Source of the DNA: Nannocystales bacterium
GTDB lineage: Bacteria > Myxococcota_A > Polyangia > Nannocystales > Nannocystaceae
Assembly: GCA_050633305.1 (NCBI GenBank)
Contig: JBOEGF010000027.1
Coordinates: 178,956 to 242,955, forward strand
DNA: 64,000 nt
Direction of reading: 5' to 3'
The notes below the pieces were generated by a model. The model saw only the letters and a list, made by a program, of their open reading frames with translations, was not told where the DNA came from and ran no database searches. A program made the position numbers and the translations under genes. Below, piece after piece: positions 28,489 to 36,486 of the stretch; positions within the stretch are counted from its first letter, which is position 1, and each line of letters begins with the position of its first letter.

Positions 28489-29541
28489 TCAGCCAAGCGT
28501 CGACGACGCCCGCCCCCCACCACCGGGCGTCCTGTACCCGCCCGCGCTCCTCGTCGCCCACGAGAGTTGCTCGAGCACGACCTGGGCTTCGCGTGGCTCG
28601 GTGGGCGGGAGCTCCACGCTCGAGAGTTCGAGGTCGCCTGGCCGCTGCCAATCCACGCGAACCTGACCCCGCTGCATCGAAACCGCCCGGATCGCGGACA
28701 GCGGGATGAGGAAGTCTGAGCGCGCGTCGCGACGGCGCAGCGCAAGGACGTCCGCGCGAATCTCGAAGCGCTCGACCGGCTGATCGAGGTGGACCATCGC
28801 CGCCACCACGACGCCGAACAGCAGCAGTATTACGCTGACCGGTCCACCAAGGCCCATCAACGCCACGGTCATGTCGTACACCGCTTCAAAGAAGCTGCCC
28901 TCCCACGCCCGCTCCCGGAACACCCGGACCGGAAGCGTCGGGTTCCCGACAAAGGGTCGCAAGACCCAGGACAACTGGGCACCGACAATTCCGTGGGTCA
29001 GCATCCAAGACCACAACACCCGCCGGGAAACTGCGGCGTCTGCGATGAGGGCGTCGAGGAGCCCGCGGAGTCGAGCGACCGCAACGATTCCTGCGCCCCC
29101 CATGATGAGCACGTGTCCGGTCAGCAGCCAGTGCGAGGTTGGGACCGACTGCGCCCCTTCGGGCGGTCCGACCTGCATCGAAACGAATGCCGCGACGGGT
29201 GCCAAACTGCCCAAGATCGAGCCGAGGATCGCCATCGCCAACACCGATGCGGTCAGAGCCTGAAGTGGCGCGATGCGGGCCCGGAGCAGGCCGGACAACA
29301 CCACGTCCAACGCCGCGGTCAGGGCCGCAGTCGCCAAGAACATCAGCGGCAGTTTGATCGCGCCGCTGACGGCCTGAAGCGGGCTACGCCACAGGCCCAT
29401 CGCAAACCCGTACGCGCCGCAGCCCACCGCAAGGATCGCCAGGGACGTTAGCAGGACGGGGCCGAGACGCTGAGCGTCGACCACCCGCCGCAGCAAGACC
29501 CCGTCCAGGCTGAGAACGCTCCGAAGCTGAGAACGCTTCAT
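28489..29541 (-). CDS. Integral membrane protein (paralog of the upstream gene)
   Basis: About 6 TM segments; AIKLPL, GAQLSWVLRPFVG; ATG overlaps upstream stop. Confidence 0.72.
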   Translation of the reverse strand: MKRSQLRSVLSLDGVLLRRVVDAQRLGPVLLTSLAILAVGCGAYGFAMGLWRSPLQAVSGAIKLPLMFLATAALTAALDVVLSGLLRARIAPLQALTASVLAMAILGSILGSLAPVAAFVSMQVGPPEGAQSVPTSHWLLTGHVLIMGGAGIVAVARLRGLLDALIADAAVSRRVLWSWMLTHGIVGAQLSWVLRPFVGNPTLPVRVFRERAWEGSFFEAVYDMTVALMGLGGPVSVILLLFGVVVAAMVHLDQPVERFEIRADVLALRRRDARSDFLIPLSAIRAVSMQRGQVRVDWQRPGDLELSSVELPPTEPREAQVVLEQLSWATRSAGGYRTPGGGGRASSTLG

Positions 29542-30278
29542 CGACGCGTCGCCGGGACGGAAGCCTGCACCCAGTGCTCGAGGAAGAACATGCGCTCGGA
29601 GTGCCACAGGCCGTCGAACTCGCCGACCAGCGGCCGGAGGGTGGTCGTCATCTGCAGCATCACCACGACGAACATGAGGCCCCACGCGCGTACGCCCGCG
29701 ATCGTCCGGCCGTTGAGCGCCCGCATCACCTTCGACATCAGCCGAACACCGACCGTCGATGCGACGACGAGGGCGATCACATGCAGGCTCCCCATCACTC
29801 CGGGCGCATCCGTGCTCTGCGAAAACAGCCACGTCACAGGCGCAAGCGCGACCAACAGCACGCCAATGAGCGCGATGCCCATCGCCAGCGTTAGCGCGGT
29901 CTCACGCACCGACTGTCCCGCCCCCGCGACCGAGGAGAAGACGTAGAGGCTGGGAAAACACAGCAACGCGCAAACCGTGAGCCCGAGGCAGAGCTTCAGC
30001 GGGACGACGAACATCTGACTCCCGCCGGAGAACGACGCGACGACCAACCCGACGATGACCATGGCCCCGAGCGTCAGCACGGCCAGGCGAAGCACGGGCC
30101 GCCTTCCAGGGCGGTTGGCCTCCGCGAGCAGATCGGCCGGAGTCTGCACGAGCGCGGCAATGATCCCCGCGAACCCGGGCCCGACGGGCCCCCCCTTGCC
30201 TCGCAGCGATGGTTCGACGATCGGAGCGTGAACAGTTGAGGACGGTGTTGGGGGATCGGACTGCGAGCTCGGCACCAC
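29538..30278 (-). CDS. Integral membrane protein (5 TM, Yip1-like topology)
   Basis: 3' part of ORF 29538..31040; PLKL...CFPSLYVF, LQMTTTLRPLVG; start GTG 30278 inferred. Confidence 0.68.
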   Translation of the reverse strand: MVPSSQSDPPTPSSTVHAPIVEPSLRGKGGPVGPGFAGIIAALVQTPADLLAEANRPGRRPVLRLAVLTLGAMVIVGLVVASFSGGSQMFVVPLKLCLGLTVCALLCFPSLYVFSSVAGAGQSVRETALTLAMGIALIGVLLVALAPVTWLFSQSTDAPGVMGSLHVIALVVASTVGVRLMSKVMRALNGRTIAGVRAWGLMFVVVMLQMTTTLRPLVGEFDGLWHSERMFFLEHWVQASVPATRR

Positions 30279-30387
30279 GGCCCAGGGGTAGCGCCGTGCG
30301 TACGCCCGACCCAGCTCAACCCGGGCGAGAGGATGGGGACGTGCACTCAACGGTCGTGGCGGGCGACTCAGTGGCGCCCGCCAACCC

Positions 30388-31037
30388 TCAGGGCAACCCG
30401 ACCGGAAGGGGCTCGCAGCGGGCCCGCGCGACGGTAGACCCCCCGCGATCGCCCCCTCGCGGTTCTGAAGCGAAACAGGCACGGGGACCGTCGCCGCACC
30501 CGGGAGGCGAGACTTCGCGAAGAGAGCCACGGCTCCATCGCAATCAAATGGAGCAAGCGCGTGCGCAGGACCGAGGCTGATGCCGTCCTCGACCACCAGC
30601 TCCCCGGCTTCTTCCCAAAGGTCGACAAACCGGAGTTGCTCACCGAGAGCGATGCCGAGCCAAACCCCCGAGGGGACTTCGGACTCCGCGCCGCCGACCT
30701 CGACGACCAGCACCGGGCCGACCTGCGTCTCCACGCCGCGGACCCGACACGGCAACGTCTCGCACGGAACCGGCATCTCCCCTGCGCTGCGCGACGGAGT
30801 CTTTGTGGAGTGAACGAGTTCCACGATGGTGTCCGTGGCCGGCCGAAGCGCCCACCCGCACACGGAGCCAGCAAACATCGTCAGCGCGCCGGACGGATCA
30901 GCATCGCCACAGGGAGACGCCGGGGCTTCATCGCGATCCTCCGGCGCTTCGGCCTCGGGTGTGCCTGGGGATCCGCCACCGCTGGTGCCGCAGCCGACGG
31001 CAAGCGCCAGCGCGACGAAAGCGATCGTGCGACGCAT
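30388..31037 (-). CDS. Lipoprotein, apparently frameshifted at a G6 tract near its 3' end
   Basis: MRRTIAFVALALAVGC lipobox; one extra G at 30439-30444 gives ...IAGGSTVARARCEPLPVGLP* with stop at 30388-30390. Confidence 0.6.
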
Positions 31038-31651
31038 CAACCGGCAGCGGCGTTGACCGTCAGAGCACCGCCATCACCGGGCGCACCCACGCCGGAGTCG
31101 GAGACTGTGCTGACCGTCCAGACCGTATCTCCGTCGGAGTTGTAGCCCCGGGTGCCGCCGACCTCGAGGCGGACGCGCGGTGCGAACCCGCCGTCGCATG
31201 CCGCGAGTTCCGCGTTGGGCAAGGGCCCGAACAGCAACACACGACCCTCGAGCGGGCCGGTGATGCTGTACGTGACCGTGAGTCGGCTGGAGTCGTCGAG
31301 CAGCTGCTGGTAGCCCACGATTTCGCACTCCGCACGTCCCGGAACATCTTCCTGGCACAGCCGATCCATCCATCCCTCGCCGCCCGCCTCCAGGTCTCCA
31401 AAGACGAGCTCTCCGTCCTCGCCCTCGAGACCCCAGTTCGAGTTGGTCGCGTAGAAATCCTCGTAGCAGGACTCGTAGCTCATCTGAATCTCGACCTGCG
31501 TTGTTCCCGTGAAGGGACTCTCGGCCTCCGAGTCGGAGCGCGAGAACTGGATCTTCACGAACCCGTGGGTGTCTTCGACTGGGGGGTCTCCGCAGCCGCT
31601 CAGAGCAAGCATCGGAGCCAGGACGAAAGCTGCTACGCAGGCGATCCTCAT
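31037..31651 (-). CDS. Hypothetical lipoprotein
   Basis: MRIACVAAFVLAPMLALSGC; TATGCT-N7-ATG. Confidence 0.72.
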   Translation of the reverse strand: MRIACVAAFVLAPMLALSGCGDPPVEDTHGFVKIQFSRSDSEAESPFTGTTQVEIQMSYESCYEDFYATNSNWGLEGEDGELVFGDLEAGGEGWMDRLCQEDVPGRAECEIVGYQQLLDDSSRLTVTYSITGPLEGRVLLFGPLPNAELAACDGGFAPRVRLEVGGTRGYNSDGDTVWTVSTVSDSGVGAPGDGGALTVNAAAG

Positions 31652-31891
31652 CGCGCGGAGCATATCGCACCCTCCTAGGGCCGAGCCACGGGCAAGCTGC
31701 CCCGGCGTCGGTCGTGTGCGACCGCAAACGAAGGCGGCTCGCAGTACCGGTGAGGTGACGCCGATCACAGGGGCCCCATGGTGCCAGGGACCGGCTCGAG
31801 GGGCGTGTTAAGGTCCGGCACCGGCGGTTGTGCGCGTTTTGCACACCGTTGGTTCGACCTTCGCTTCTCTTACCGTCCTGCGCATCTGGCC

Positions 31892-33838
31892 ATGCTCGAC
31901 ACGCCGCCCCCTTCTGCGTCGCCTTCGACTGTCGCTCCCGTCGCCGCCCTTGGCAGCCCGATCGAGCAAAGCCTCGGAATCGTTCAGCCGCTCGCGGCGT
32001 CGTGGCGAGCGCGAGTGGTCGACTCGATGGACACGACCAGTCCCGGAGAACGTTGGTTGGCCGCGGTGCCGGATGTCGGTCCAAGCTGCGAGGTGATCCT
32101 CGCGGACACGCTTCTGCACGATCTGGGCGCCGCCGAAAAAGCAGACCTGCTGCGATGGATTCGGGCGACACAAGACGCATCCGGGGCATGGCTCAGCACG
32201 GGGGGCAGTCCAGATCTCTCGCTGACGGTCCTCGGCTGGTGGGCGCGTCGCTGCGCTGGCGACGACCCGAGCGAGCCCTCGATGGTTCGTGCACAGAGGG
32301 TTGTGCACGCGCTTGGCGGTGCACAGCGAACAAACTTCGAGGTCCGGCTGTGGCTCGCGCTGTGCGGCGCTGTGCCCTGGGACTTCCTCCCCGCCATCCC
32401 TGGCGAGCTGTTCTTGCTGCCGCGCTCGATGTGGGTCTCGCCCAGCCGCGTGGCTCCTTGGGCCCGCGGCGTGCTGACGCCGTACTACGTCCTGGCTCGA
32501 GCCGGTGCCCGTCTGCGGCTGCCAGACCCCTCGCCGCTCATGCTGCGTCGCGATCCGGACGCATCCATGGTGTGCCCACGACTCACCCGGCCCGGCCTTG
32601 CGGGGGATCTGCTGCAGGCCTTCGACCGAACGGTGAAGCTGTCGCAGAAGCTCCCACGCGGTCCACTGCGGCGCCGCGCGGTCGCTCGCGCGGTCGCGTG
32701 GATCGAGGACACCAAACAGCGCCACGGAGGATGGTTCTCCACCCGACCGACGCTGCTGTCGCTTCTGGCGCTGCGAGTCCAAGGCGCCACGGAAGACGAC
32801 CCCCGCGTGGTCAGCGGCCTCGCTCACCTTCGGGCATCCCGAGGCAACGCGGTCGTTCGCCGCGGCATCGGCCAGGGCGAGACAGCGCTGGCGCAGGGGC
32901 TCGGCGGCACACACGTCGCGACCGCAGCTCGCCTCGTGCTCGCCGACGGCACGCCCTCCGACATCTCGACGCTGCTCCGCATGGAGCTGAGCACGCCCGG
33001 GCCGTGGCAGGACCGGGCCAACGCACTCGCGGGTGGCTGGCCCCACGAGCCGGGTGCCGAACACCACCTCGACCTGGACGCGACCTGCAACGTCCTCGCC
33101 GTGCTCGGCGGGATCGCCGAAGACAGCCCGCTGCGCACCCCGGCCTGGGCCGCCCGGCGGCGAGCCACCGACATTCTGCTCGCAATGCAGGAGGGCCCCG
33201 GCGGCTTCGCCCGCTTCGAACGCGGAGAAGCGTCCGTGTTCCTGAGGCGTTTTCCGTGGGCCGACGGCGACCTGCTGGCGATGGGGAACCCCCGCGACAC
33301 CGACCGCGTCCGACTCGCCGCCCATGCCCTGGGCCACCTCGGCCGGACCGGCTTCCGCATCGATGACGACCGAGTCGCCCGCGGGATCGCCTGGCTACGG
33401 AGCGTCACCTCCGATGCCTATGACACCCGTTCGATCGCGACGCTCTCGGGCCTGGCGGGTGCGGCGGTCGCAACCTGCCCTCCGTCACACCCGATGCGCC
33501 AAGAGATGGAACACCGGCTGCGCGCTCGCCAGCGCGAGGACGGAAGCTTCGGCGACCTCGTCGACACCGCCCAGGCCCTGTGCGCGCTGCTCGAACTCTC
33601 GGGCCCCTGCGTGCAGTGTCATCGCGCCGCTCGGCACCTCGCCGAAGCCGTGGCCCGCCACGGCGATGACCTCGAGCTCGCCAGTCAGGCCTCGTGCCAA
33701 GGACTGGGCCTCAGCGCCCGACTGGAGGACCCGTCAGCAACCGCGCGCGAAGTCTCGCTCGCCCTCCGTGCGTTCGTCCGGCAGACCAGCGGCGCACAAC
33801 CCAACAAACGAACGGGCTCCCGTTCGTCCAACAGGTAG
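31892..33838 (+). CDS. Divergent squalene-hopene cyclase-like (class II triterpene cyclase) protein
   Basis: QDASGAW, DLSLTV, GGAQRTNFEVRLWLAL.G..PW..LPAIPGELFLLP, PWARG, LRRRAV, QRHGGW, LAMQEGPGGFARFE, QREDGSF; catalytic-region motif GGWP...DLDAT. Confidence 0.8.
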   Translation: MLDTPPPSASPSTVAPVAALGSPIEQSLGIVQPLAASWRARVVDSMDTTSPGERWLAAVPDVGPSCEVILADTLLHDLGAAEKADLLRWIRATQDASGAWLSTGGSPDLSLTVLGWWARRCAGDDPSEPSMVRAQRVVHALGGAQRTNFEVRLWLALCGAVPWDFLPAIPGELFLLPRSMWVSPSRVAPWARGVLTPYYVLARAGARLRLPDPSPLMLRRDPDASMVCPRLTRPGLAGDLLQAFDRTVKLSQKLPRGPLRRRAVARAVAWIEDTKQRHGGWFSTRPTLLSLLALRVQGATEDDPRVVSGLAHLRASRGNAVVRRGIGQGETALAQGLGGTHVATAARLVLADGTPSDISTLLRMELSTPGPWQDRANALAGGWPHEPGAEHHLDLDATCNVLAVLGGIAEDSPLRTPAWAARRRATDILLAMQEGPGGFARFERGEASVFLRRFPWADGDLLAMGNPRDTDRVRLAAHALGHLGRTGFRIDDDRVARGIAWLRSVTSDAYDTRSIATLSGLAGAAVATCPPSHPMRQEMEHRLRARQREDGSFGDLVDTAQALCALLELSGPCVQCHRAARHLAEAVARHGDDLELASQASCQGLGLSARLEDPSATAREVSLALRAFVRQTSGAQPNKRTGSRSSNR

Positions 33839-33840
33839 AC

Positions 33841-35298
33841 ATGACCGCCCCGACGAACCACTTCGACGTCGTGATCATCGGTGCTGGCCTCGCCGGCTGC
33901 GCCACGGCCCGCGCACTGCGAGCCGCCGACCCCACCGGACGCCGCCGGATCGCACTGATCGACAAGTGCACTGACGTGCACCCTCAGTTTTCCGGCGAGT
34001 TCATTCATCCGCGGGGCGCGGAGATCCTCGACAGCCTCGGCTTCTACGAACCGCTGATCGAAGCCGGTGCCGTCGACGTCGACGGGTTTCTCGTCTTCGA
34101 GCACGCTGATGCTCAGCCGATCGAGCTCGAGTACAGCGACGTCCCCAACCGGCGGGACCGGGGTCTGTCGGTACACCACAAGACCCTCGTCCGGACGATT
34201 CGCGGCGAGTTGCGAGCCGCCGGCGGCATCGATATGCGCGAAGGCTGGTCGCTGATCGATCTCGTTCGGGACGATTCAGGCCGGACCACCGGCGTTGTCC
34301 TGCTCGATCCCGACAAGACCCGCCACACCTTGAACTGTGACCTCGTCGTTGCGGCTGACGGCAAGAACAGCTCGGTCCGCAAGCTCGCGGGCATCGGCGA
34401 TGGGGGACGCGAGACCATCGGCTTCACCGCAGGCGTGTCGGTCACCGACGCAACGCTGACACGAGACACGTACGCCCACGTCTTGCTCGGAGCATGGGGC
34501 CCGGTGCTCGCGTACCCGATTCAGAACGAGCAGGACGGGACCGTCACCACGCGGATCACCATCGACCTGCCCAAGGAGCTGCCCGCCAAGGGTGCGGCCC
34601 TCAAGGACCACCTCCTCGAGGCCTACATCCCTTTCCTGCCCGCACCCCTGTCGACCCAGGTCGCCGAGGCGATTCGCAAGCATCCGGGCAACCTCTACAT
34701 GGCGCCCACGGTGAACCTCCCCGCCCCCGCCGCCGCACAGCCCGGCATCGCGTTGGTCGGGGACGCAGGTGGCTGCTCGCATCCGATCACGGCGAGTGGA
34801 ATGACGATGGGCCTCCGGGACGCGGAGACCCTGGGCGAGGAGGCGAGTCGCCGCGCGAATACGCCGACCGACGAAGTCTGGTTCGACACCGCCGCGCTCC
34901 GTCGCTACCGCGCGCAGCACGACCGCTACGTCCCCACCCGTCAGGCCCTTGCCGATGCGATCTACGAGGCCTTTCGCGGCGAGCGGGAAGGATCCCGGGC
35001 GATCCGGCGGGCGCTCTTCGAATACTGGGGAAGTGGACGGTCGGCGCGGAGCCGGTCGATGTCCCTCCTCTCGTGCAGTGAGGGCCGTCCGTCGGTGTTC
35101 CTGAGCGAGTACTTCAAGACCGCTCGACATGCGCTCAGCTCGAGCCTGGTCCCGCAGCACGCCCGCAGATACCCGGTTGCGGACCGGGTCCGCCGTGCGC
35201 GCGGTGCCGCCTCCCTCGCCAAAGACAAACTGGGGCTTGTTGCCGCAGTCATGTGGGCCCAGGTCCGCCCCAGTTGGATGCCCCACACGGCCCGATGA
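33841..35298 (+). CDS. Squalene epoxidase/monooxygenase (SQLE/ERG1-like FAD enzyme)
   Basis: IIGAGLAG, GEFIHPRG, VAADGKNS, HVLLGAWGPVLAYPI, GDAGGCSHPITASGMT, ALADAIYEAF, IRRALFEYW parallel the squalene epoxidase motifs in order. Confidence 0.8.
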   Translation: MTAPTNHFDVVIIGAGLAGCATARALRAADPTGRRRIALIDKCTDVHPQFSGEFIHPRGAEILDSLGFYEPLIEAGAVDVDGFLVFEHADAQPIELEYSDVPNRRDRGLSVHHKTLVRTIRGELRAAGGIDMREGWSLIDLVRDDSGRTTGVVLLDPDKTRHTLNCDLVVAADGKNSSVRKLAGIGDGGRETIGFTAGVSVTDATLTRDTYAHVLLGAWGPVLAYPIQNEQDGTVTTRITIDLPKELPAKGAALKDHLLEAYIPFLPAPLSTQVAEAIRKHPGNLYMAPTVNLPAPAAAQPGIALVGDAGGCSHPITASGMTMGLRDAETLGEEASRRANTPTDEVWFDTAALRRYRAQHDRYVPTRQALADAIYEAFRGEREGSRAIRRALFEYWGSGRSARSRSMSLLSCSEGRPSVFLSEYFKTARHALSSSLVPQHARRYPVADRVRRARGAASLAKDKLGLVAAVMWAQVRPSWMPHTAR

Positions 35299-35355: not shown

Positions 35356-36486
35356 ATGGGAGCGCGGGTTCTGGTCGTCGACGACGACCCTTGGATTCTC
35401 CGCATGGTCACCGCGACGCTGCAAAAGCGTGACTACGTGGTGGACACTGCGCGAGAAGGTCGACAAGCGCTTCAGCGCGCGAGTGCGAACCCGCCGGACG
35501 TGATCATCTCCGACGTGATGATGCCGGTCATGGACGGGTGGACCTTCGTCGAGCAACTCCGCCGCGACCCGAGGCTCTCGACCATCCCGGTCATCTTCCT
35601 CACCGCACTGGGCAAGGACGAGGCTCGCATCGCGGAGTTGGGCCTCAGCCCCGACGACTTTCTCGCGAAGCCGTTCCGGTTCGACGCGCTCGAGAAACGC
35701 GTCGCGGCTGCGCTCGCGAAGCCTGCGGCGGCACCGGTTCAGCCACATCCGCAAGCGGCGATGCCGGCCCACCCAAACGCCAACCCAAACGCCAACCCAC
35801 ACGCCAACCCAAACGCTAACGTCGATCCGTATGCGCCTCCCCCAGGCTCGACGCCTGTCCCAGGTACATACGGTGGCCAGCCCGCCCCTGCCGCGCGTCC
35901 GGCCTACACCTCCCCGGGTGCGTACGGAGCCGCCGCCGCTCCTGCGCCGAGTCCTGGGTACGCAGCACCGCAAGCACCAGTGGCACCGGCTGCGCCCGAA
36001 GAGCCTCCCGTCGGCGGGTTCGCTCCAGACTTCCCGGCCCGTCAGGTCGAGGCTGTACCCCCACACCAAGAGCCTCTGCGCGCGCCCCCAAAAACCGCCG
36101 AGGTCCGGGCCGCGGCCGCGGGGACCGAGCCGCGGCGCACACGGAGAACCACGGCCCTCAACGGTCGGCTCGAACAACTCCAGCTCTCGAGCCTGCTCGT
36201 GATGATGGAGATGGAACGCAAGGACGGTCTCCTGGCCCTCAAGGACAGTCGGACCGGTGTCGTCGGCCGCATCTTCCTCCGGCGAGGTCAGGTCATCTGC
36301 GCAAAGCTGGGTGACAACGACACGGGTAAAGAGTGTGTCTACGACATGCTCGGGTGGAAGGCTGGCACATTCAGCTTCAACGCGATGGAAGTCGAAATGG
36401 AGGACACCATCAACTCCTCCACGACGCATCTCCTGATGGAGGGTGCTCGGTTGATCGACGAAGCCAATCGCGAAGAAGGGTTCTGA
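35356..36486 (+). CDS. Response regulator with Pro-rich linker and DUF4388 domain
   Basis: VLVVDDD, SDVMMPVMDG, KPF; C-terminal LNGRLEQLQLSSLL.MMEMERKDG...W..GTFSF...LLMEGARLIDE. Confidence 0.88.
   Translation: MGARVLVVDDDPWILRMVTATLQKRDYVVDTAREGRQALQRASANPPDVIISDVMMPVMDGWTFVEQLRRDPRLSTIPVIFLTALGKDEARIAELGLSPDDFLAKPFRFDALEKRVAAALAKPAAAPVQPHPQAAMPAHPNANPNANPHANPNANVDPYAPPPGSTPVPGTYGGQPAPAARPAYTSPGAYGAAAAPAPSPGYAAPQAPVAPAAPEEPPVGGFAPDFPARQVEAVPPHQEPLRAPPKTAEVRAAAAGTEPRRTRRTTALNGRLEQLQLSSLLVMMEMERKDGLLALKDSRTGVVGRIFLRRGQVICAKLGDNDTGKECVYDMLGWKAGTFSFNAMEVEMEDTINSSTTHLLMEGARLIDEANREEGF

Follow-up and report, generated by a model that had tools for sequence, protein, structure and literature searches.

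A squalene epoxidase gene with a cyclase-like neighbour

The window analysed here is a 64 000-nucleotide stretch of the genome of a Nannocystales bacterium (family Nannocystaceae; GenBank assembly GCA_050633305.1, contig JBOEGF010000027.1, positions 178 956 to 242 955 of the forward strand). It contains an open reading frame (ORF) at 31892-33838 (+) that encodes a 648-aa relative of squalene-hopene cyclase (SHC) and ends with a TAG stop codon at 33838; after an intergenic gap of 2 bp, the ATG of a flavin adenine dinucleotide (FAD) protein of the squalene epoxidase (SE) family follows at 33841. Both coordinates agree with an initial annotation made from the sequence alone, which offered two readings of the cyclase-like protein: an SHC-lineage enzyme re-purposed for oxidosqualene in a new triterpenoid pathway, or a non-catalytic partner of the epoxidase. 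We set aside the first as the principal explanation, because the DLDA motif behind it is not conserved among homologues and an oxidosqualene cyclase (OSC) is encoded elsewhere in the genome. The second is favoured by the gene pair, a predicted complex and an orphan copy of the gene. The protein, hereafter the pseudo-cyclase, is real, conserved and partly noted before; it is a well-supported candidate SE subunit, and a new triterpenoid pathway is unlikely. It is probably a conserved SHC-derived pseudoenzyme that, in Nannocystaceae, is in complex with SE as a membrane-seated, non-catalytic subunit. The sequence-based grounds for this are lost catalytic constraint, purifying selection, a fixed gene pair and joint absence; the complex and its interface are predicted.

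The identity of the FAD protein as an SE, on which any such reading depends, withstood scrutiny by Pfam, sequence and fold alike. It matches the Pfam SE family PF08491 (E = 4e-31) and human SQLE (E = 2e-30), and its model superposes on SQLE with a TM score of 0.81; among solved structures SQLE (6c6n/6c6p) is its best match in both sequence and fold. The FAD motifs (GxGxxG, DG and GD) and the Tyr aligned with the catalytic Tyr of SQLE (Y98) are invariant in 119 homologues, and in a tree built without a non-SE outgroup the protein groups among myxobacterial SEs. Unlike SQLE, it lacks an N-terminal regulatory domain and starts directly at the FAD fold, and none of the solved entries matched includes a cyclase-fold partner.

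The source genome (11 Mb, 92% complete) has no other SE-family gene and just two cyclase-family genes, the pseudo-cyclase and an OSC with the motif VSDCTAE on another contig, together with three squalene/phytoene synthase matches and a sterol reductase; a second, canonical SHC was not found in this 92% complete assembly. Because this is the only SE-family gene in a genome with an OSC and a sterol reductase, we infer that the SE epoxidises squalene. Its best reading from sequence is as the ordinary, housekeeping first enzyme of sterol synthesis, making 2,3-oxidosqualene for the OSC encoded elsewhere. A canonical OSC is present in 69 of the 72 Nannocystales genomes, and all 30 OSCs fetched have VSDCTAE. 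We therefore reject a missing OSC as an explanation, and the genome needs no new cyclase for its SE.

An SHC fold with an unconstrained active site

The pseudo-cyclase matches Pfam SQHop_cyclase_N (E = 2e-52) and SQHop_cyclase_C (E = 1e-18) and is closer to SHC, with a profile match of E = 9e-48 compared with 8e-15 for human OSC, in line with what the initial annotation had judged from its N-terminal half. Its AlphaFold model (mean predicted local distance difference test, pLDDT, 91.5) finds its best fold match in the Alicyclobacillus acidocaldarius SHC structure 2sqc, with a TM score of 0.78. Yet it scores only 161.7 bits against the SHC model TIGR01507, below the curated cut-off of 431.1, and 59.2 bits against the OSC model TIGR03463 (cut-off 851), and it has no DCTAE motif. 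In a cyclase tree the pseudo-cyclase family forms one clade on a long stem branch (1.55) outside the OSC clade; its place among SHC subgroups is not settled by the tree, given that long branch. Two alpha-alpha barrels are present, with four QW-like repeats (residues 94, 276, 433 and 547) and the WAR Trp at 190, both of which had already been recognised. The absence of SPVWDT and GRWGVNY was likewise correctly noted; GTGFP is absent as a string, but a remnant, GLGLS, remains at residues 604-608. The overall fold, W190 (equivalent to SHC W169) and the substrate-entry side are retained, while the W489/Y495 segment of SHC is shortened in the alignment.

The DLDAT motif aligns to D374-V-D376-D377-T378 of A. 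acidocaldarius SHC. It is indeed neither DxDD nor DCTAE, with the refinement that the window copy retains the SHC acid position, as D396. For mapping the pocket we relied on assumed roles of the SHC active-site residues, with an aromatic cage that we take to comprise W312, F365, F437, W489, Y495, F601, F605, Y609 and Y612. Conservation was assessed in an alignment of the window protein with the best 120 of 314 matches (n = 121) and in a per-genome motif survey of 55 copies fetched from the 66 genomes carrying the gene. The expectation that DLDA might be conserved in related genomes was not borne out. At the acid position (D376 equivalent), the 121 homologues have Asp in 32, Glu in 32, Leu in 27, Ala in nine and other residues in the rest; the 55 genomes have Asp in 16, Glu in 11, Arg in nine, Leu in eight, Ala in four, Lys in two and five other residues once each, so that Arg or Lys occupies the position in 11 of 55. 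Even an 88%-identical congener has Glu there. The D377 position is Asp in 0 of 121 homologues, and the H451 position is His in nine. The SHC residue occurs in none of the 121 at the positions of W312, F437, Y609 and Y612, and in two at that of F601 (mapping beyond SHC residue 537 was an ungapped reading by eye and is less sure). Only two positions remain aromatic: that of W169, in 121 of 121, and that of Y420, which is always Phe (117) or Tyr (4). Near the pocket, a Gly has given way to an invariant Phe. In control SHCs from the same phylum, DxDD is intact in 13 of 13. The family thus has neither DxDD with both D376 and D377 nor the aromatic cage and, to judge from these alignments, its catalytic site is not under constraint.

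D394, by contrast with its neighbour at 396, is invariant (121/121 homologues and 55/55 genomes). D394...T398 mirrors a helix-start pattern seen at other barrel repeats (D108...T112, S283...T287 and x555...T559); because the pattern recurs at three other repeats, the invariance can be explained structurally, though D394 may still have a catalytic role.

Purifying selection and a fixed gene pair

The initial annotation allowed that the cyclase might be a neutrally evolving, decaying gene. Its nonsynonymous-to-synonymous rate ratio (dN/dS) is 0.04-0.38 over 14 genome pairs, as low as that of SE (0.06-0.32) and OSC (0.08-0.45, 13 pairs); the ratios come from a simple counting method applied to high-GC genes, with some dS values near 1. 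By this measure purifying selection acts on the pseudo-cyclase gene as it does on SE and OSC. Among the 121 homologues, 145 positions are at least 95% conserved, with 92 of 281 in the N-terminal domain and 53 of 297 in the C-terminal domain. SHC carries an amphipathic helix that inserts in the membrane; the equivalent helix (residues 236-254) is among the conserved N-terminal barrel positions, and its hydrophobic moment is at least 0.49 in 121 of 121 homologues. Catalytic residues without constraint in a gene under purifying selection are the mark of a pseudoenzyme.

The pairing with SE is conserved in relatives. The pseudo-cyclase gene is present in 66 of 72 Nannocystales genomes, including two reduced genomes of 4.4-4.5 Mb, and a family-type SE (at least 54% identity) in 64. 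The gene accompanies the family-type SE in 64 of 64 cases: in 63 it immediately precedes SE on the same strand, and in one the two are separated by contig ends. Two genomes have the gene without a family-type SE: in one (G029) it ends at a contig edge, and the other (G009) is a true orphan. Metagenomes yielded 18 loci with 15 family members; SE is next in all seven that have downstream DNA, and eight end too soon. Family-strength matches occur only in Nannocystaceae among the 401 phylum genomes searched; of 20 weaker matches in the phylum, the 13 fetched are all DxDD SHCs. Named homologues among the best matches are from Nannocystis pusilla, Paraliomyxa miuraensis and Nannocystaceae, and a scan of named genomes returned six close relatives only.

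The gene is missing from six genomes, of which three have neither an SE nor an OSC match and three have a distant SE (32-34% identity) and a distant OSC (38-43%). The flanking genes are less than 900 bases apart in all five gene-less sites checked, and therefore both genes are absent from the syntenic site. In an rpoB tree, made by a quick method with 27 of 30 genomes, G009 groups with G032 as its sister and the two are nested next to genomes that have the pair, so that absence there is a loss; the other two genera are unsettled near the base. The three genomes with no match (G016-G018) belong to one genus with genomes of 2.5-4.7 Mb and are apparently sterol-free Nannocystaceae. In G022, G036, G067 and G005, pair genes or the OSC are in two frame-shifted pieces, probably through sequencing errors; in G022 and G036 several genes per assembly are affected.

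A predicted complex and orphan copies

Prediction of a complex between pseudo-cyclase residues 52-570 and SE residues 5-482 (both chains trimmed) gave a score of 0.78, as compared to 0.00 for the best of three controls. The score mark is reached by 116 of 157 solved complexes and by 2 of 215 mismatched pairs, a calibration that is roughly valid here, where our own alignments were used. At least 96% of contacts are shared between runs, with a partner pLDDT of 84 or higher. For both proteins the solved structures matched are of single enzymes, so that recall of a similar known complex is unlikely. On the pseudo-cyclase, the predicted contacts fall on the outside of the C-terminal barrel (residues 373-379, 415-431 and 485-493), at a distance from the trimmed ends; the majority of the consensus interface residues are uncommon among 79 DxDD cyclases. 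The pseudo-cyclase is thus predicted to bind SE.

The G009 orphan (L038:7978-10068), an intact ORF of ∼635 aa at the ancestral site with no SE there, was absent from the alignments used for the prediction. It retains 3 of 16 consensus interface residues, compared with 177 of 282 elsewhere (Fisher p = 0.0009, the sites not being independent). In the other 54 genomes 10-16 of the 16 are retained, also in three copies that are as diverged as that of G009 and have kept their SE. A metagenomic copy on a 5981-bp contig (P0126) has 2 of 16 interface residues and 25 of 27 in the membrane helix. The replacement SEs of pair-less genomes retain 2-3 of 16 residues on their side, against a background of 38-44%, a difference that is not significant (p = 0.06-0.18).

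Several observations weigh against a dedicated complex with SE. Neighbouring genes picked blind passed in 7 of 44 cases when the prediction method was calibrated, and both chains were trimmed here. In G009 the core is kept and the membrane helix is eroded (9/27), so that decay there extends beyond the interface; any protein under relaxed constraint erodes at its surface before its core. The G009 copy also indicates that the gene can persist without SE. On the SE side, the interface is no better conserved than the rest (9/16 in G014, G015 and G058). Covariation between the proteins is weak: over 53 paired genomes, no top-25 pair joins both interfaces, and the mean Z of the interface block, 0.10, is slightly above random (0.85% of 2000 random sets), a weak signal biased by kinship. 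The lineages without the pair are few (three genera plus G009), the number of independent absence events is small and some absences may be ancestral; pair-less genomes also carry a different OSC, so co-occurrence alone cannot tell SE from OSC as the partner. The window copy keeps its acid position (D396) and the His partner (H478, equivalent to H451), having lost the D377 equivalent. Finally, the idea that this SE is short of a hydrophobic anchor compared with other SEs found no support (tail hydropathy 0.65-0.98 in three native, 0.99-1.15 in three unpartnered SEs, the G032 value being left out because it is that of an OSC tail); the unpartnered tails are no less poor in hydrophobicity, and a special need for an anchor is unsupported.

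How the pair may work

In the reading that we prefer, of the pseudo-cyclase as a non-catalytic SE subunit, it would dock on SE with the outside of its C-terminal barrel, as modelled, and perform no cyclisation. With its retained amphipathic helix it would most likely hold SE at the membrane and help SE to reach squalene, or stabilise or tune it; SE would supply 2,3-oxidosqualene to the distant, ordinary OSC. A fuller picture, which we put forward tentatively, is of a two-subunit SE in which a dead cyclase seated in the membrane draws squalene through its old channel and either presents it to the flavoprotein or, sensing sterol, throttles it.

Unlikely, although it survives best among the alternatives, is the same complex with another job: the pseudo-cyclase would regulate SE as a lipid sensor, turning it up or down by feedback when squalene, oxidosqualene or a sterol binds in the emptied pocket, and would not be an anchor that turnover requires. 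All the evidence for binding applies equally to it, and the retention of the fold, W190 and the substrate-entry side and the greater conservation of the N-terminal domain would suit a sensor. Mammalian SE has a lipid-sensing regulatory domain (PMC8166775), whereas the window SE begins at the FAD fold. However, the pocket no longer has the aromatics on which a sterol would stack, and the invariant Phe stands in place of Gly near it.

We consider it slightly less likely again that the protein has kept or gained catalysis, as the main reading of the initial annotation had it; an SHC-lineage cyclase or isomerase would then turn oxidosqualene from SE into a monocyclic or otherwise partly cyclised 3-hydroxy triterpene, with D396 (in the window copy) or D394 as the acid. 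The window copy does keep D394, D396 and H478, and D394 is invariant; an SHC D377C variant yields monocyclic 3-deoxyachilleol (PMC6127371), some SHC-clade enzymes act only on oxidosqualene, MstE using DxD (PMC12324236), and a physical complex with SE would also suit substrate hand-off. But position 396 takes Arg, Lys, Leu, Ala, Trp or Gly in orthologues under purifying selection, D394 has its structural explanation, the other candidate acids (E67 and D613) are replaced in the divergent, still partnered copies of G010, G014 and G015, and the cation-stabilising aromatics are lost. Moreover, only sterols are listed for the lipids of Enhygromyxa salina, Plesiocystis pacifica and Nannocystis in the parts of the literature available.

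About as unlikely, in our estimate, is a non-catalytic sterol-pathway protein (a squalene or sterol carrier, a membrane shaper or a partner of OSC) that is merely co-transcribed with SE and makes no contact with it. The distribution of the gene tracks the native OSC as closely as the native SE, G009 keeps the gene without SE, and P0126, which lost the interface and kept the helix, indicates that the two features are separable; set against this are the complex score relative to its controls and the erosion of the predicted interface in the copy without SE. That the gene is a decaying SHC, its constraint relaxed after sterols displaced hopanoids, as was suggested for the P. pacifica SHC (PMC2817430), is scarcely credible: the long stem branch and the loss of the active site are what it predicts, and it fits G009, which has the longest branch (1.18), but dN/dS is as low as in SE and OSC, 145 positions are at least 95% conserved and the gene is in 66 of 72 genomes.

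Relation to known systems

Nannocystaceae (Enhygromyxa, Plesiocystis and Nannocystis) make the most eukaryote-like bacterial sterols and figure in the debate on the origin of sterol synthesis. The gene pair had already been noted in two members of the family, and the arrangement of an SE beside an SHC has stood as an unexplained oddity since 2009. In P. pacifica, ERG1 adjoins a very divergent SHC, which was called puzzling (Desmond and Gribaldo 2009, PMC2817430), and the squalene monooxygenases of P. pacifica and E. salina were later marked as encoded right beside an SHC-like enzyme of undefined kind (Santana-Molina et al. 2020, PMC7306690). With the same arrangement in the same bacterial family, this is almost certainly the same orthologous pair as that of the window. 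In the parts available, these reports contain no selection analysis, partner hypothesis or test of the SHC-like protein. The second notes that critical residues are kept only by planctomycete SHC-like proteins, not myxobacterial ones; the planctomycete clade also has a polyprenyl synthase nearby, and the window protein does not belong with it because its critical residues are lost and its neighbours are SE and a response regulator. The parts seen of PMC4919349, PMC10202945, PMC6226438, PMC8237579 and PMC12146001 give no test of the SHC-like protein either, and our literature search, largely outside subscription papers, found no proposal of a partner subunit for an SE-adjacent SHC. In PMC4919349, the "lanosterol synthase" tags of P. 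pacifica and Nannocystis exedens in table 4 adjoin the SE tags and differ from the Osc tags in table 2; they may be the pseudo-cyclase. A cyclase survey dropped sequences without DxD (McShea et al., PMC12324236), so that most of the pseudo-cyclase family falls outside recent cyclase surveys.

With SHC itself (A. acidocaldarius, 2sqc/1gsz; TIGR01507; PF13249 and PF13243), the pseudo-cyclase has in common the two-barrel fold, the QW-like repeats, the amphipathic helix and equivalents of W169, D374 and T378. It differs in lacking DxDD, in falling below the TIGR01507 cut-off, in its unconstrained or lost acid, His and most aromatics, in forming its own long-branch clade, and in being tied to SE rather than to hopanoid genes. 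An SE beside or fused to a cyclase fold is known also from SE-OSC pairs and fusions (Methylococcus, Gemmata and Myxococcaceae; fusions, PMC10070321); there, however, the cyclase is an active DCTAE OSC that feeds on the SE's oxidosqualene, whereas here it is an SHC-derived pseudoenzyme and the OSC is on another contig. That Osc does not co-localise with squalene monooxygenase in Nannocystaceae has been reported (Lee et al., bioRxiv 10.1101/2024.11.01.621555).

If the pseudo-cyclase is an SE subunit, a hopanoid enzyme would have been recycled into sterol synthesis as a relic of a switch from hopanoids to sterols, and it would be the first dedicated accessory subunit for a squalene epoxidase, suggesting how a flavoprotein reaches a hydrocarbon buried in the membrane. 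In practice, genes of this family carry the annotation squalene-hopene cyclase, from which hopanoids or new triterpenes can be wrongly deduced.

SE fusions and further cyclases

Long SE ORFs were sought among 400 genomes of the class, and 15 loci (L211-L225), chosen for their long frames, were fetched. SE-OSC fusions with VSDCTAE occur in four of the 15. Of 13 other long SE ORFs, 12 were scanned, and 12 of 12 have SE and squalene synthase (SQS) domains; in 9 of 12 there is a weak cyclase-barrel match between the two, with no DxDD or DCTAE (eight were matched by our own profiles and six by Pfam at E ≤ 0.01). Like the window pair, these fusions keep SE with a cyclase-type barrel that has neither DxDD nor DCTAE, but their SE belongs to a different clade, and a remnant of ∼250-400 aa within one polypeptide contrasts with a whole, separate two-barrel protein. 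SE is thus accompanied by a non-catalytic barrel more than once, in parallel to the window pair; the barrel is no general need of SE, because many SEs stand alone. We found no fusion of a family-type SE with the pseudo-cyclase (the two long matches are both distant SE-OSC fusions), which is weak evidence.

One long SE ORF of each fusion kind stands side by side in L214 and in L223. The replacement SE of G032 is fused to a DCTAE OSC (L042:538-3915, a 1125-aa ORF); the genes in the same run resemble, by eye, those for HMG-CoA reductase, type 2 IPP isomerase and a prenyltransferase fusion. Other cyclases were met as well: G027, which has the pair and an OSC, also encodes an extra SHC with an intact DNDD motif (L179:5889-7844), and G020 a very divergent extra cyclase with the motif CDCDTT directly after a large kinase-like ORF (L051:5064-6959). 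Distant matches (P0185, P0201, P0252, P0257 and P0176) are SHCs fused to squalene synthase, a transferase, a glycosyltransferase or DUF116.

Features of the locus

Table 1. Features of the window at and around the gene pair (coordinates are those of the window)
Feature	Position	Strand	Basis or remark
SHC-derived pseudo-cyclase, complete two-barrel fold, 648 aa	31892..33838	+	Pfam, alignment to SHC, AlphaFold model; start at 31892 fits the length of the closest homologues
DLDAT, residues 394-398, in register with SHC D374-x-D376-D377-T378	33071..33085	+	Translation agrees with the initial annotation; family almost invariant at D394 and T398, variable at the acid position, 396
Amphipathic helix, residues 236-254, equivalent of the SHC membrane helix	32597..32653	+	Alignment to SHC; strong family conservation
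Predicted SE-binding segment 1, residues 373-379	33008..33028	+	Complex prediction; deleted in the G009 orphan copy
Predicted SE-binding segment 2, helix 415-431, W419 central	33134..33184	+	Complex prediction
Predicted SE-binding segment 3, residues 485-493, G-F-R-x-D-D-D	33344..33370	+	Complex prediction
Squalene epoxidase (SE), 485 aa	33841..35298	+	Pfam, SQLE sequence and fold match; sole SE-family gene found in the genome
Main predicted partner-binding surface of SE, residues 257-279 (plus 217-219, 381-383 and 438-451)	34609..34677	+	Complex prediction
Divergent upstream gene, no known family	31037..31768	-	Conserved left flank, synteny marker; not part of the system
Response regulator with DUF4388	35356..36486	+	Conserved right flank, synteny marker; not shown to be part of the system

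A search found no sigma-70-like promoter, and three upstream ORFs scanned against Pfam (28489-29832, 29538-31040 and 31037-31768) gave no match. Between 27053 and 31768 the window has several small Cys-rich or lipoprotein-like ORFs, some of them syntenic across the family.

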